NCBI RefSeq assembly: GCF_003334335.1
Contig: NZ_QOWQ01000013.1
DNA length: 64,000 nucleotides
Strand: one strand, 5' to 3'
Origin: Escherichia coli
GTDB taxonomy: Bacteria > Pseudomonadota > Gammaproteobacteria > Enterobacterales > Enterobacteriaceae
In this document: one piece after another, positions 1 to 46,220 of the stretch
Layout of the letters: every line of letters begins with the position of its first letter
Position numbering within the stretch: position 1 is the first letter of the stretch
The notes under the pieces: generated by a model
Seen by the model: only the letters and a program-made list of their open reading frames with translations
Database searches by the model: none
Told to the model about the DNA's origin: nothing
Program-made: the position numbers and the translations under genes

Positions 1-928
<928 letters not shown>

Positions 929-958
929 TCAAATTTAAATGATCAGATCAGTATACCG

Positions 959-2281
959 TTATTCGCTGATACGGCGATAGACAGTTGGTGTGCTTTCCGG
1001 TGCTTTATCGGCAAGTTTAATTGCCGCTTTCACCGCTTTCGCCGCTTCCTGCCAGCTGTTTTCGTCTTTCGCGTGGATAACCGCCAGCGGACGCTGACCG
1101 TCTACCTGGTCGCCCAAACGCGCCATATCAGTAAAGCCGACGCTGTAATCGATGGTGTCAGATGCCTGACGACGACCGCCGCCCATTGCAACCACTGCCA
1201 TCCCCAGCGCGCGGGTATCCATTTCACTGACAAAACCTTCGGTATCAGCATAGACTGCTTTCGTCAGCATCGCTGTCGGCAGATACTTCGCGTAGTTCTC
1301 AACGAAGTCGGTCGGGCCTTTTTGTGCCGCTACCATACGACCAAAGACTTCTGCCGCTTTACCGTTGTCCAGCACCGCCTGCAATTTCGCGCGCGCTTCG
1401 GCGTCATCTTTCGCCAGTTTGCCGGAGATCAGCATCTCCACACACAGCGCCATCGTGACATCAAACAGACGCGGGTTACGATATTCACCCGTCAGGAACT
1501 GCACCGCTTCACGAACTTCAACCGCGTTACCGGCACTGGAGGCCAGCACCTGATTCATATCGGTGAGCAGCGCGGTGGTGCGCACGCCAGCGCCGTTAGC
1601 CACGCCAACAATCGCTTCAGCAAGGGCTTCAGAGAGTTCGTAGGTCGGCATAAATGCACCGCTACCCACTTTCACGTCCATCACCAGCGCATCCAGACCT
1701 TCCGCCAGTTTCTTCGCCAGGATCGAGGCAGTGATCAGCGGGATGGAGTCCACGGTTGCGGTAATATCACGGGTCGCGTAGAAACGTTTATCCGCCGGAG
1801 CCAGTGAGCTGGTCTGACCGATAATCGCCACGCCGACGTCTTTAATAATTTCGCGGAAACGGTTGTCATCCGGGAAAATGTCGAAGCCAGGGATGGATTC
1901 CAGTTTGTCGAGCGTACCGCCAGTATGACCGAGGCCGCGACCGGAGATCATCGGAATATAGCCGCCGCAGGCAGCGACCATCGGCCCCAACATCAGCGAA
2001 GTGACGTCGCCGACGCCACCAGTGGAATGTTTATCAACAATCGGGCCATTCAGATGCAGGCTTTTCCAGTCGAGAACGGTTCCTGAATCTCGCATCGCCA
2101 TGGTCAGCGAGACACGCTCAGGCATTGTCATATCGTGGAAGAAAATGGTCATCGCGAGGGCGGCAATCTGCCCTTCGGAGATAGTGTTGTCGCGAATACC
2201 GTTGATAAAGAAACGAATTTCTTCATCGCTCAGCGCATGACCATCACGTTTTTTACGAATAATTTCTTGTGCGAGAAACAA
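959..2281 (-). CDS. deoA: Thymidine phosphorylase
   Basis: 440-aa ORF; [31 protein letters not shown] ... KHSTGGVGD motif; synteny between deoB and deoC. Confidence 0.95.
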
Positions 2282-2310
2282 GGTAACCTCCCGTGGAAAA
2301 GAGTATGAGG

Positions 2311-2395
2311 CGGCTTTTGCCGGATGCGTCTACGCCTTATCCGGCCTACGGGTAGATACGTCTCGTAGGCCTGATAAGCGCAGCGCATCAGGCGT
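2311..2395. repeat. REP/BIME palindromic element in deoA-deoC intergenic region
   Basis: gccggatgcg...gccttatccggcctac and inverted partner ...gtaggcctgataagcgcagcgcatcaggc typical of REP units. Confidence 0.7.
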
Positions 2396-2407
2396 AAAGC
2401 ATCTTAC

Positions 2408-3187
2408 TTAGTAGCTGCTGGCGCTCTTACCGTCGCCGTGGCCCAGCGCTTTCAACAGGCTTGCCAGCAGGCTGGAAGCGCCAAAGCGGTAGTGACGCGC
2501 ATCTGCCCAGTCAGCACCGAACAGTTCATCTGCAATCGCGAGATATTTCTGCGCATCTTCCGCAGTACGCACGCCGCCCGCTGGTTTGAAACCAACGGTT
2601 TTTTCTACGCCCATATCACGGATCACTTCCATCATGATGCGCGCGCTTTCCGGCGTCGCGTTCACAGCCACTTTACCGGTAGAGGTTTTGATGAAGTCCG
2701 CACCCGCTTTGATGGAGATTTCAGACGCTTTACGGATCAGCGCTTCGTCTTTTAGTTCGCCGGTTTCGATGATCACTTTCAGCAGTACATTCGCTGCCGC
2801 GCAAGCCTCTTTACAGGCTTTCACCAGGTCAAAACCAACCTGCTCGTTACCCGCCATCAGCGCGCGGTACGGGAACACCACGTCAACTTCATCGGCACCG
2901 TAGGCGATTGCCGCACGGGTTTCTGCCAGCGCGATTTCGATGTCGTCGTTACCGTGTGGGAAGTTGGTTACCGTAGCAATACGGATTTCCGGGGTGCCCT
3001 GCTCTTTCAGTGTTTTGCGAGCAATCGGGATAAAGCGAGGATAGATACAGATAGCGGCGGTATTGCCGACCGGGGTTTTGGCCTGATGACACAGAGCAAT
3101 TACTTTCTCGTCGGTGTCGTCGTCATTCAGGGTGGTCAGGTCCATTAATTTCAGTGCACGCAGGCTGCTTGCTTTCAGATCAGTCAT
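2408..3187 (-). CDS. deoC: Deoxyribose-phosphate aldolase
   Basis: Track ORF 2408..3211; N-terminus as I recall it ([24 protein letters not shown]) begins at the 9th codon, giving 259 aa with start codon at 3185-3187. Confidence 0.95.
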
Positions 3188-3231
3188 TTCATTCTCCTGG
3201 CTTGTCGCCAATAAAATTCACCTTGCGAGTT

Positions 3232-3247
3232 TGTTAGTATTCTAACA
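3232..3247. promoter_or_regulatory. DeoR operator-like 16-bp palindrome (deoP2-proximal, O2)
   Basis: TGTTAGTATTCTAACA about 45 bp upstream of the deoC start; near-perfect match to the DeoR operator palindrome TGTTAGAA/TTCTAACA. Confidence 0.7.
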
Positions 3248-3444
3248 TCTACTCCGCAACACACTTCGATATACATCACAATTAAGGAAATCTACTTACA
3301 AGTTTGCATCACTGTAATGCGATCTGGTTCAAATAATTCACTTTCAAATGAATGCGTCAGTGGTGGCAAACGCATCAGGATCAAAGTGAACATCACGAAA
3401 CTTCTTACAATGGCGCATCACCTTCGGCATAAAAGGAAAAGAAG

Positions 3445-4995
3445 ATGCCCACTTCTCATGAAAATGCACTGCAACAACGTTGCCAGCAAATTGTCACCAG
3501 CCCAGTGCTTAGCCCGGAGCAGAAGCGCCATTTTCTGGCACTGGAAGCAGAAAACAATCTGCCTTATCCGCAGCTGCCTGCCGAGGCCCGCCGCGCGCTG
3601 GATGAGGGTGTAATCTGCGATATGTTTGAAGGTCATGCGCCGTACAAACCGCGCTATGTCTTACCCGATTACGCCCGTTTTCTGGCGAACGGTTCCGAAT
3701 GGCTGGAGCTGGAAGGCGCGAAAGATCTTGATGACGCACTCTCTCTGCTGACCATTCTTTACCACCACGTACCGTCGGTCACATCGATGCCGGTCTACCT
3801 GGGGCAACTGGATGCGTTGTTGCAACCGTATGTTAGAATTCTAACACAAGACGAGATCGATGTTCGAATAAAACGTTTCTGGCGTTACCTCGACAGAACC
3901 CTGCCAGACGCCTTTATGCACGCCAATATCGGCCCGTCTGATTCGCCCATTACCCGCGCGATCTTACGTGCAGACGCAGAGTTGAAGCAGGTTTCACCGA
4001 ACCTGACCTTTATCTACGATCCTGAAATCACCCCTGATGACCTGCTGCTGGAAGTGGCGAAGAACATCTGTGAATGTAGCAAACCGCACATCGCCAACGG
4101 TCCGGTGCATGATAAAATTTTCACAAAAGGGGGCTACGGGATTGTGAGCTGTTACAACTCACTGCCGCTGGCGGGTGGTGGCAGCACGCTGGTACGCCTT
4201 AACCTGAAAGCCATTGCCGAGCGCAGCGAATCGCTGGATGACTTCTTTACGCGCACTCTACCGCACTACTGCCAGCAGCAGATCGCCATCATCGATGCGC
4301 GGTGTGAATTCCTCTATCAACAATCACACTTCTTTGAGAATAGCTTCCTGGTGAAAGAAGGGCTGATTAACCCTGAACGTTTTGTGCCAATGTTTGGCAT
4401 GTATGGGCTGGCGGAAGCGGTTAACTTGCTGTGTGAGAAAGAAGGGATTGCCGCACGTTACGGTAAAGAAGCCGCCGCAAATGAAGTGGGTTATCGCATC
4501 AGCGCGCAACTGGCGGAGTTTGTCGCCAATACCCCCGTGAAATATGGCTGGCAAAAACGCGCCATGTTACACGCACAGTCGGGGATCAGTTCCGATATCG
4601 GCACCACGCCGGGCGCGCGTTTGCCGTATGGCGATGAGCCAGATCCGATCACCCATCTGCAAACTGTCGCCCCGCATCATGCTTATTATTATTCCGGCAT
4701 CAGCGACATTCTGACCCTCGACGAAACCATCAAACGTAACCCGCAGGCACTGGTACAGCTTTGCCTCGGTGCCTTTAAAGCCGGAATGCGTGAATTTACC
4801 GCCAATGTCAGCGGTAACGATCTGGTTCGCGTTACCGGTTATATGGTGCGTTTGTCGGATTTAGAAAAATATCGCGCCGAAGGTTCACGCACCAACACCA
4901 CCTGGCTGGGCGAAGAAGCCGCACGCAACACTCGTATTCTGGAACGCCAGCCGCGCGTGATAAGCCATGAACAGCAGATGCGCTTTAGTCAGTAA
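3445..4995 (+). CDS. yjjI: YjjI-family putative glycyl-radical enzyme (DUF3029)
   Basis: 516-aa ORF; 3' end overlaps the downstream radical-SAM activase gene; conserved position between deoC and yjjW. Confidence 0.85.
3831..3846. promoter_or_regulatory. DeoR operator, perfect palindrome (deoP1-associated, O1), inside yjjI coding sequence
   Basis: TGTTAGAATTCTAACA perfect 16-bp palindrome, exactly 599 bp from the 3232 palindrome; that spacing matches the two-operator deo promoter architecture as I recall it. Confidence 0.7.
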
Positions 4996-5830
4996 GATTA
5001 TCCCCTTCTCCTGCGTTGACGGGCCAGGCAGTCGTCTGGCTCTGTTTTTGCAGGGCTGCAATCTGCGCTGCAAAAACTGTCACAATCCGTGGACGATGGG
5101 ACGCTGCAATGATTGCGGAGAGTGCGTGCCACAGTGTCCGCATCAGGCGTTGCAGATTGTTGACGGCAAAGTGATGTGGAACGCTGTGGTCTGCGAGCAA
5201 TGTGATACCTGCCTGAAGATGTGTCCGCAACATGCCACGCCGATGGCGCAATCCATGAGCGTGGACGAAGTGCTTAGCCATGTCCGCAAAGCAGTGCTGT
5301 TTATCGAAGGGGTAACGGTAAGCGGCGGTGAAGCCACGACCCAGCTGCCGTTTGTGGTGGCGCTGTTTACTGCTATCAAAAACGATCCGCAACTGCACCA
5401 TCTCACCTGTCTGGTGGACAGTAACGGTATGTTGAGCGAAACCGGCTGGGAAAAATTGCTTCCGGTGTGCGACGGCGCAATGCTCGATCTCAAAGCGTGG
5501 GGGAGCGAATGTCATCAGCAATTAACCGGACGCGATAATCAGCAGATTAAGCGCAGCATCTGTTTGCTGGCAGAGCGTGGCAAGCTGGCAGAACTGCGTT
5601 TGCTGGTAATCCCTGGCCAGGTGGATTATTTGCAACACATCGAAGAACTGGCGGCGTTTATCAAGGGACTTGGCGATGTTCCGGTACGCCTGAACGCGTT
5701 TCATGCCCACGGCGTGTATGGCGAGGCGCAAAGCTGGGCGAGCGCCACGCCGGAAGACGTTGAGCCGTTGGCTGATGCATTAAAGGTGCGCGGGGTGAGC
5801 CGGTTGATATTTCCGGCGCTCTATTTGTGA
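4967..5830 (+). CDS. yjjW: Glycyl-radical enzyme activating protein (radical SAM, extra ferredoxin-like Cys clusters)
   Basis: 287 aa; [11 protein letters not shown] radical-SAM cysteine motif plus additional Cys-rich clusters ([24 protein letters not shown]); overlaps yjjI by 29 nt. Confidence 0.85.
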
Positions 5831-5831
5831 C

Positions 5832-7128
<1,297 letters not shown>

Positions 7129-13944: not shown

Positions 13945-14140
<196 letters not shown>

Positions 14141-14244: not shown

Positions 14245-14331
14245 GCGAAGGTGGCGGAATTGGTAGACGCGCTAGCTTCAGGTGTTAGTGTCCTTACGGA
14301 CGTGGGGGTTCAAGTCCCCCCCCTCGCACCA
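14245..14331 (+). tRNA. leuQ: tRNA-Leu (anticodon CAG)
   Basis: GCGAAGGTGGCGGAATTGGTAGACGCGCTAGCTTCAGGTGTTAGTGTCCTTACGGACGTGGGGGTTCAAGTCCCCCCCCTCGCACCA; type II tRNA with long variable arm, CAG anticodon in CTTCAGGT loop, encoded CCA end. Single copy here; which of leuQ/P/V it corresponds to is not determinable. Confidence 0.9.
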
Positions 14332-46113: not shown

Positions 46114-46139
46114 GTATTTAGCGCGGTGCGGATGTGCGC

Positions 46140-46220
46140 CAACACACCCGCACCGCTAATCACAATCACTATTTATAGGGAATAGCAGTTATGACTGACA
46201 CGCATTCTATTGCACAACCG
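46140..46220 (-). ncRNA. symR: Probable SymR antisense sRNA (type I antitoxin) overlapping the symE 5' end
   Basis: Placement from the known K-12 arrangement, where SymR is encoded antisense across the symE ribosome-binding site and start codon; boundaries not determinable from sequence alone. Confidence 0.35.

Follow-up and report, generated by a model that had tools for sequence, protein, structure and literature searches.

The deoCABD control region of Escherichia coli and its operators and promoter within the divergent gene yjjI

The deoC-yjjI locus and its operators

The stretch of DNA analysed here, referred to as the window, comprises 64,000 nucleotides of the Escherichia coli chromosome. 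The region of interest lies between two divergent genes, deoC on the minus strand and yjjI on the plus strand, and extends well into the second of these. Annotations of K-12 and of sequence-identical E. coli DNA give the regulated downstream genes as deoC-deoA-deoB-deoD, of which deoC and deoA are found inside the window. On the other side, yjjI is accompanied by the gene for its activase, yjjW, and E. coli chromosomes match the whole deoC/yjjI/yjjW stretch at 100% identity. The genes and operators are as follows:

2281..959, minus strand: deoA, next in deoCABD after deoC, within the window
2408..3187, minus strand: deoC, first gene of deoCABD, from the ORF list and from the RefSeq annotation of E. 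coli DNA with the identical sequence
3232..3247, no strand assigned: deoO2, a DeoR operator with one mismatch, overlapping the predicted -10 of deoP2; deo-strand sequence TGTTAGAATACTAACA
3445..4995, plus strand: yjjI, encoding an orphan glycyl radical enzyme of the YjjI family, 516 codons
3831..3846, no strand assigned: deoO1, a perfect DeoR palindrome in yjjI codons 129-134, overlapping the predicted -10 of deoP1
4110..4125, no strand assigned: deoOE, TGATAAAATTTTCACA, with four mismatches, occupying yjjI codons 222-227 at a distance of 279 bp from O1
4967..5830, plus strand: yjjW, the activase of YjjI

An earlier, sequence-only reading of this DNA had pointed to two DeoR-type palindromes, and a sequence search confirms both their coordinates and their spacing. 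The first, TGTTAGTATTCTAACA, occupies 3232-3247 (deoO2), and the second, the perfect palindrome TGTTAGAATTCTAACA, occupies 3831-3846 (deoO1); both lie upstream of deoC, and their start-to-start distance is 599 bp (3831-3232). Measured against the 16-bp operator palindrome TGTTAGAA.TTCTAACA, O1 has no mismatch and O2 has one. They are the only two sites with three or fewer mismatches to TGTTAGAATTCTAACA in the whole 64-kb window, where 0.17 would be expected from shuffles, and an independent repeat search recovered the two together, once as a 19-nt direct repeat spaced by 599 (family D4) and once as an inverted pair (I2). The assignment of these sites to deoO2/deoP2 and deoO1/deoP1 agrees with the literature, in which both palindromes are quoted as DeoR sites with letters identical to those found here (PMC5326754), deoP1 and deoP2 are separated by 599 bp and locked by looping (PMC3334521), and O1 and O2 lie about 600 bp apart, with a third operator, OE, about 300 bp further upstream (PMC8053113). 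Electron micrographs have shown the deo loops, and for the natural operator spacing a looping of about 72% is predicted (PMC8053113).

The two-operator picture was thus correct as far as O1 and O2 are concerned, but it overlooked OE, which also lies within yjjI and is the single additional site in the 64 kb when up to four mismatches to TGTTAGAATTCTAACA are allowed. Its distance of 279 bp from O1 we take to be the exact value known for this pair, quoted above as about 300 bp. K-12 MG1655 carries identical copies of the three sites, at 4617263-78, 4616664-79 and 4616385-400; over the 1199 positions of 3102-4300, the strain studied here shows 8 differences from K-12, all outside the operators.

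The placement of O1 and deoP1 inside yjjI, which had likewise been proposed, is true by coordinates and is backed by the cross-species nucleotide conservation described below. O1 corresponds to codons 129-134, deoP1 to codons ~138-146 and OE to codons 222-227 of 516, and the six O1 codons, TAT GTT AGA ATT CTA ACA, encode YVRILT. Since the YjjI family profile TIGR04040 spans residues 11-504, O1 belongs to the true reading frame rather than to a wrongly annotated N-terminus.

How constant is the arrangement? O2 is kept in 70 species, 36-59 nt upstream of the deoC ATG and with no more than four mismatches. The O1-O2 distance ranges from 567 to 612 bp across species, with a mode of 601; as it is not strictly conserved, the value of 599 is not in itself functionally special. 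Strict helical phasing of the two operators was rejected, because spacings of 596-604 bp span almost an entire helical turn across species.

Promoters and activator sites

Several further elements can be placed between and around the operators. The precise points where transcription begins, the promoter of yjjI and a possible influence on yjjI expression are inferences.

3239..3244, minus strand: putative deoP2 -10, TAGAAT after TGn (extended -10), read from sequence; predicted start ~3232
3265..3280, no strand assigned: CRP-1 of deoP2, TGTGATGTATATCGAA on the deo strand, a conserved block
3281..3317, no strand assigned: CytR operator region of deoP2, the conserved columns between the CRP sites in a 44-species intergenic alignment; boxes approximate
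3318..3333, no strand assigned: CRP-2 of deoP2, 53 bp from CRP-1, conserved in the intergenic alignment
3378..3411, plus strand: likely yjjI promoter, with the invariant GGATCAAA (3378-3385) and a conserved -10, TACAAT (3406-3411); predicted start ~3418
3838..3843, minus strand: putative deoP1 -10, TAGAAT with TGn (extended -10), read from sequence; predicted start ~3831
3865..3884, minus strand: block upstream of the deoP1 -10, at about -34 to -53, deo-strand sequence AAACGTTTTATTCG, including the rare codons CGA and ATA

On the deo strand, the motif TGnTAGAAT is contained within both O1 and O2 (TGTTAGAAT). From its predicted start, deoP1 would give a leader of ~644 nt, antisense to the 5' end of yjjI. 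The half of O1 that carries TGTTAGAAT is invariant in 74 of the 76 species in which deoC is adjacent to yjjI, Edwardsiella having TAAAAT, and nearly all the variation in O1 falls in the opposite half. The block at 3865-3884 is probably a -35/UP-like element of deoP1. A scan of 3100-4300 with sigma-70 and terminator consensus sequences called neither deoP1 nor deoP2, because the -35 hexamers of both are weak; this does not weigh against them, as each depends on an extended -10 and P2 additionally requires CRP. Rfam contains no family matching 3100-4300, so the long deoP1 leader shows no trace of any known RNA element.

The centre of CRP-1, at 3272.5, lies at -40.5 relative to the predicted deoP2 start, which is the class II position for CRP. 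Its 16-mer, TGTGATGTATATCGAA, is found beneath an ETEC CRP ChIP-seq peak between yjjI and deoC (PMC4287617), and both the CytR/CRP arrangement and its mechanism at deoP2 have been described (PMC3454398).

Between CRP-2 and the yjjI ATG, GGATCAAA and TACAAT are the sole conserved blocks in the 44-species alignment, and GGATCAAA includes an FNR-type ATCAA half-site (3380-3384). A full FNR site (TTGAT-N4-ATCAA) was considered and rejected, as the ATCAA half alone is conserved; the left half matches at two of five positions in E. coli and is unconserved. The gene is listed as directly activated by FNR, with an FNR ChIP-seq peak at U00096.2 4,615,181 (PMC3688515); by our own coordinate conversion, this peak falls at about position 3352 of the window, ~25 bp from the half-site. 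The yjjI promoter is likely to be FNR-dependent.

This promoter would lie inside the O1-O2 loop and face deoP1 at a distance of ~414 bp, and interference between yjjI and deoP1 is plausible. On this view, the intragenic sites would serve yjjI chiefly or in addition to deo: DeoR bound at O1 and OE might act as a roadblock to yjjI transcription, and the convergent deoP1, once induced, might lower yjjI expression through an antisense overlap of ~414 nt, coupling yjjI to deoxynucleosides. That the two units are connected in this way is conceivable, though we consider it doubtful. The position of the likely yjjI promoter between O2 and O1 and opposing deoP1, the direct activation by FNR with a ChIP peak in the yjjI-deoC intergenic region (PMC3688515), and the retention of the divergent deoC-yjjI pairing in 76 of 80 species would all be in keeping with it. 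However, deo regulation alone fully explains the conservation, and the synteny of deoC and yjjI may simply be inherited. In the literature searched, no paper named both yjjI and DeoR.

Another reading is that the sites are (also) CRP sites, and that occupancy inside yjjI is due to CRP rather than DeoR. O1, O2 and OE are indeed each two mismatches away from TGTGA-N6-TCACA, but the window contains 26 sites within two mismatches of this core where 25.5 are expected, so a match at this level carries no weight. In O1 and O2, the position-4 G and the symmetry-related C, which are the most important contacts for CRP, are replaced. The ETEC ChIP-seq peak inside yjjI (PMC4287617) calibrates to ~3793-3813, ~35 bp from the centre of O1; however, such a peak could equally come from CRP bound at deoP2 and cross-linked to O1 via the DeoR loop. 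On balance, CRP is an improbable explanation. The CRP motif that the ETEC authors found in yjjI with MEME (3768-3783; PMC4287617) has ordinary, coding-type conservation (rank 1009 of 1533) and was rejected as a selected site.

Conservation and the imprint on yjjI codons

Do the sequences of O1 and OE reflect the regulation of deo or the needs of the YjjI protein? The yjjI comparison set consisted of 80 species, 76 of them with deoC adjacent and the other four belonging to Proteus, where no deo operon adjoins the gene. Throughout the 76 deoC-adjacent species of Enterobacterales, from Escherichia to Edwardsiella, O1 is found at yjjI nucleotide +386, with at most two mismatches, and OE at +665. 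Synonymous diversity, calculated over 47 non-redundant species, is 0.458 for yjjI overall, falling to 0.016 in O1 and to 0.008 in OE, the lowest in the gene, and OE is nearly invariant in all the deoC-adjacent species. A blind scan of yjjI for lost synonymous variation returned exactly O1, OE and the block upstream of deoP1. All of the 12 most conserved 16-nt windows, out of 1533, are located in one of these three elements, and the most conserved in the whole gene are held by the 3865-3884 block, whose synonymous sites are frozen in the deoC-adjacent species and variable in Proteus. Of the seven yjjI codons in the rarest class (AGA, CGA, CTA and ATA), four (AGA131, CTA133, CGA141 and ATA142) are clustered in O1 and P1.

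The four Proteus species, in which yjjI adjoins ytjB-serB-radA and has no deo operon next to it, lack both O1 and OE, and their codons at these places vary freely. The corresponding Proteus peptides are YVG[ENS]LT and DAVFGK, versus YVRILT and DKIFTK in the deoC-adjacent species. Edwardsiella, with 73-74% identity, is about as divergent as Proteus, yet it has deoC adjacent and has kept both sites.

Within E. coli itself, 60-nt queries against 5426 genomes placed the P1/O1 segment below a control in conservation, by identity bands that cannot localise the differences and are therefore uninformative. This apparently lower within-species conservation was traced to one common SNP, at 3862 (V140I), which is in the P1 spacer and outside the operators.

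On another reading, the intergenic O2 would be the only real site, and the palindromes inside yjjI would follow from the YjjI protein sequence, or be chance matches, with no regulatory role. This can draw on the facts that conserved residues dictate part of O1 (its Y, V, L and T occur in Proteus too) and that OE taken alone has four mismatches, ~2 such matches per 64 kb being expected (uniform-composition calculation). It is practically refuted by the synonymous-site and Proteus comparisons: freezing is confined precisely to O1, OE and the block upstream of deoP1, rare codons are kept there, and Proteus has variable codons and other residues at the corresponding peptide positions. The function of all three sites has also been reported (PMC5326754, PMC8053113).

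A known control region with doubly used nucleotides

The region is almost certainly the classical regulatory region of E. coli deoCABD, which was already known, with the nucleotides of O1, deoP1 and OE doubly used in yjjI; because these elements lie inside the yjjI coding sequence, the same nucleotides serve two functions. It is the same system as the described deoCABD control region, which it matches in its operators, in the spacings of 599 and 279 bp, in the genes downstream and in the CRP and CytR sites, and whose operators and looping are reportedly the subject of work by Dandanell and Hammer 1985, Valentin-Hansen et al. 1986 and Amouyal et al. 1989.

In the order OE (4110-4125), 279 bp, O1 (3831-3846), 599 bp and O2 (3232-3247), the operators would function as a set. 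DeoR on O1 and O2 would occlude the tandem promoters deoP1 and deoP2, since each of these operators contains the putative extended -10 TGTTAGAAT on the deo strand. By bridging operators, multimeric DeoR would form DNA loops that strengthen repression, and deoxyribose-5-phosphate would release it. Two CRP dimers would additionally activate deoP2, counteracted by CytR between them. Selection on this regulatory function has fixed codons of YjjI, rare ones included, and even amino acids. The sequences, spacing, context, conservation and codon imprint behind this account were computed here, and DeoR binding, looping and the inducer are taken from previous work (PMC5326754, PMC8053113).

Auxiliary operators inside genes are familiar from lac (O2 in lacZ) and gal (OI in galE), where they likewise loop with a promoter-proximal operator. 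In those systems, however, the intragenic operator is in a gene of the regulated operon, whereas in deo two operators and a complete promoter are in a divergent, unrelated gene under different control, probably by FNR, and are read antisense to it. The yjjI-deoP1 arrangement resembles cases of convergent-promoter interference and antisense overlap in layout only (~414 bp, counted from a predicted promoter).

What, then, does the locus add? It amounts to the rediscovery of a founding example of DNA looping as a means of long-range repression, and existing knowledge is unchanged. The added value is modest and lies in the visibility, within YjjI, of selection on the operators and deoP1, in the form of frozen synonymous sites, retained rare codons and altered residues across Enterobacterales, all of which are missing from Proteus, a natural negative control. 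The fixed positions of O1 and OE, the blind synonymous scan, the contrast with Proteus and the rare-codon cluster are new here. Any recoding, deletion or codon optimisation of yjjI should respect the overlap, since a clean deletion of the gene also takes out deoP1, O1 and OE, and the overlap is also relevant to the interpretation of deo or yjjI expression data.

Going beyond the classical deo control region, one may tentatively suppose, at rather long odds, that DeoR at O1 and OE together with the convergent deoP1 measurably modulates the FNR-dependent yjjI-yjjW genes and, separately, that O1 and OE arose within pre-existing coding sequence, changing YVG-LT/DAVFGK to YVRILT/DKIFTK. If this is true, an orphan glycyl radical enzyme would be tied to the availability of deoxynucleosides, and the locus would provide a clean natural example of how a regulatory site can remodel the sequence of a protein.

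DeoR operators of the deo–yjjI region

In the sequence-only reading, two DeoR-type palindromes were placed 599 bp apart at 3232-3247 and 3831-3846, and this is borne out both by reading the sequence and by a mismatch search of the 64-kb window. At ≤3 mismatches to the palindrome, only O1 and O2 are found in the whole window (shuffles expect 0.17), with a start-to-start distance of 599 bp; at ≤4 mismatches there is a single extra site, OE, lying exactly 279 bp past O1. Valentin-Hansen et al. reportedly gave exactly 279 bp for OE in 1986. The O1/O2 pair was also recovered by an unsupervised repeat search, as a 19-nt repeat with a spacing of 599.

Features of the deo–yjjI region
2281..959, deoA
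3187..2408, minus strand, deoC
3232-3247, O2, operator of deoP2: TGTTAGTATTCTAACA (read on both strands of 2400-4800)
3265-3280, CRP-1, CRP-like site of deoP2 (sequence match)
3318-3333, CRP-2, CRP-like site of deoP2 (sequence match)
3445..4995, plus strand, yjjI
3831-3846, O1, operator of deoP1: TGTTAGAATTCTAACA, a perfect palindrome (read on both strands of 2400-4800)
4110-4125, OE, third operator: TGATAAAATTTTCACA (mismatch search)
4967..5830, yjjW

The palindromes quoted as DeoR sites in a 2017 paper, TGTTAGAA-TACTAACA and TGTTAGAA-TTCTAACA (PMC5326754), are the deo-strand readings of these two sites, and another paper gives a 599-bp separation for the two deo promoters, which DeoR looping locks together (PMC3334521). 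The sites are the classical DeoR operators, and their assignment to deoP2 and deoP1 was correct. A loopometer study likewise places O1 and O2, bound by DeoR, ~600 bp apart at tandem promoters and OE ~300 bp further upstream, notes loops between all DeoR sites by electron microscopy, and predicts ~72% looping at the natural spacing (PMC8053113). This is a textbook system.

The segment 2400-5000 matches E. coli chromosomes at 100% identity and occurs in 5424 of 5426 complete genomes, where the genes annotated on it are deoC, yjjI (a glycine radical enzyme of the YjjI family) and yjjW (the activase of that enzyme). In K-12 MG1655, yjjW-yjjI is divergent from deoCABD and all three operators are present as in the window. 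Just downstream of yjjW, five to six REP-type repeats clustered in tandem (5869-6353) match Rfam naRNA4 (RF02564), and one more naRNA4 copy lies at 14023-14105, beside a tRNA-Leu gene. There is a single tRNA-Leu(CAG) gene (14245-14331) versus three in tandem in K-12 MG1655 (leuV, leuP, leuQ), reflecting either a real copy-number change or a collapsed assembly repeat. The SymR antitoxin RNA (RF01809, 94 bits) is on the minus strand at 46120-46196.

On the deo strand, both O1 and O2 start with TGTTAGAAT, in which a TAGAAT -10 hexamer is preceded by TGn, making an extended -10. Since this element lies inside both operators, a bound repressor would occlude it and cover the promoter. The deoP2 -10 runs from 3244 to 3239, with an inferred start at ~3232, so that the centre of CRP-1 falls at -40.5; CRP-2 is spaced 53 bp from CRP-1. 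CRP-1 is the motif that an ETEC study reported beneath its CRP ChIP-seq peak in the yjjI-deoC interval (PMC4287617), and the CytR/CRP mechanism at deoP2 has been described (PMC3454398). A consensus promoter scan called neither deoP1 nor deoP2, because their -35 hexamers are weak. At position 3862, within the spacer/-35 region of deoP1, E. coli strains commonly differ by G>A (yjjI V140I, e.g. in CFT073); most other genera have A (ATT), making the window's G the minority state.

Conservation and codon-level imprint on yjjI

Because the YjjI family model spans protein residues 11-504, O1 (codons 129-134) and OE (codons 222-227) lie within genuine coding sequence, and the distal palindrome is indeed embedded in yjjI. 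Among yjjI loci of 80 species, from Escherichia to Proteus, all 76 with deoC as divergent neighbour have a site with ≤2 mismatches to the DeoR palindrome at exactly yjjI nucleotide +386 and the OE sequence at +665. In 70 of the 76, the deoC ATG is preceded by O2 at a distance of 36-59 nt; the intergenic region is longer in Hafnia and Edwardsiella and offers only weak O2 candidates. The O1-O2 distance ranges over 567-612 bp (mode 601), and 599 is therefore the E. coli value rather than a conserved constant. Variation in O1 falls nearly all in the half without the deo-strand -10, which fits a dual role for the half that carries it.

A codon alignment, restricted to 47 species with <90% nucleotide identity, was scanned for loss of synonymous differences. 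The gene-wide fraction is 0.458; codons 222-228 (OE) score lowest at 0.008, then 129-134 (O1) at 0.016, followed by codons 138-146 (upstream of the deoP1 -10), the yjjW-start overlap and codons 295-300. When 16-nt windows of yjjI are ranked by conservation, the top 12 of 1533 are all within O1, OE or 3865-3884, and four of the seven rare AGA/CGA/CTA/ATA codons of E. coli yjjI (131, 133, 141 and 142) are in the O1/P1 segment. The fifth low-synonymous block (4327-4347, codons 295-300; 0.11 vs 0.46 gene-wide) reads TTC TTT GAG AAT AGC TTC and differs from the DeoR palindrome at 8 positions; no motif is obvious in it, and in Proteus the codons vary.

Four Proteus species provide a negative control: their yjjI adjoins ytjB-serB-radA with the deo operon absent nearby, and it has no DeoR-like site. 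The peptides at the O1 and OE positions are YVG[ENS]LT and DAVFGK, versus YVRILT and DKIFTK, and their codons are freely variable. Edwardsiella, about as divergent as Proteus (73-74% identity), has deoC adjacent and keeps both O1 and OE. The Proteus order radA-serB-ytjB-yjjI-yjjW (~500-5540 of the Proteus loci), set against yjjI / deoCABD-yjjJ-lplA-ytjB-serB-radA in E. coli, suggests that the deo block either came to lie beside yjjI by insertion or disappeared from Proteus, with O1, P1 and OE arising within yjjI afterwards. Codon 131 is GGA (Gly) in Hafnia and Edwardsiella, Gly in Proteus, and AGA, AAA or similar in Enterobacteriaceae, suggesting that a Gly-to-Arg change perfected the O1 palindrome.

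Transcription across the operators

A second ETEC CRP peak is listed within yjjI (PMC4287617). Calibration on two other peaks shows that coordinates in that paper differ from those of the current RefSeq record by 178-198 bp (~188 bp), and the corrected peak falls at ~3793-3813, roughly 35 bp from the centre of O1. The authors' own weak CRP motif for this peak (3768-3783) is not conserved in the 16-nt window ranking of yjjI. The peak may represent deoP2-bound CRP cross-linked to O1 via the DeoR loop, or weak binding of CRP to O1; the operators have 2 mismatches to the CRP core, a likeness of no statistical weight.

Between CRP-2 and the yjjI ATG, the intergenic alignment contains two conserved blocks only, GGATCAAA (3378-3385) and TACAAT (3406-3411), which we read as a putative yjjI promoter starting at ~3418. 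A published list of operons under direct FNR activation includes yjjI, assigning it a ChIP-seq peak and the entry "TSS not known" (PMC3688515); the converted peak lies at window ~3352, and conservation of the FNR site is limited to its ATCAA half. Near this peak is an imperfect 21-nt inverted repeat, TTCACTTT...AAAGTGAA (3337-3357 / 3370-3390), whose left arm is unconserved outside Escherichia and whose right arm holds the invariant GGATCAAA.

On this reading, the putative yjjI promoter would sit within the loop between O1 and O2, divergent from deoP2 and facing deoP1 ~414 bp off, and RNA polymerase transcribing yjjI would have to cross O1 and OE. With this placement and passage, the proposed interference between deo regulation and yjjI expression is geometrically plausible in both directions. 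Among the papers searched, none names yjjI together with DeoR. Possible cross-talk with yjjI is a modest question, and the codon imprint on YjjI, with its Proteus control, serves better as a neat example than as a new finding.
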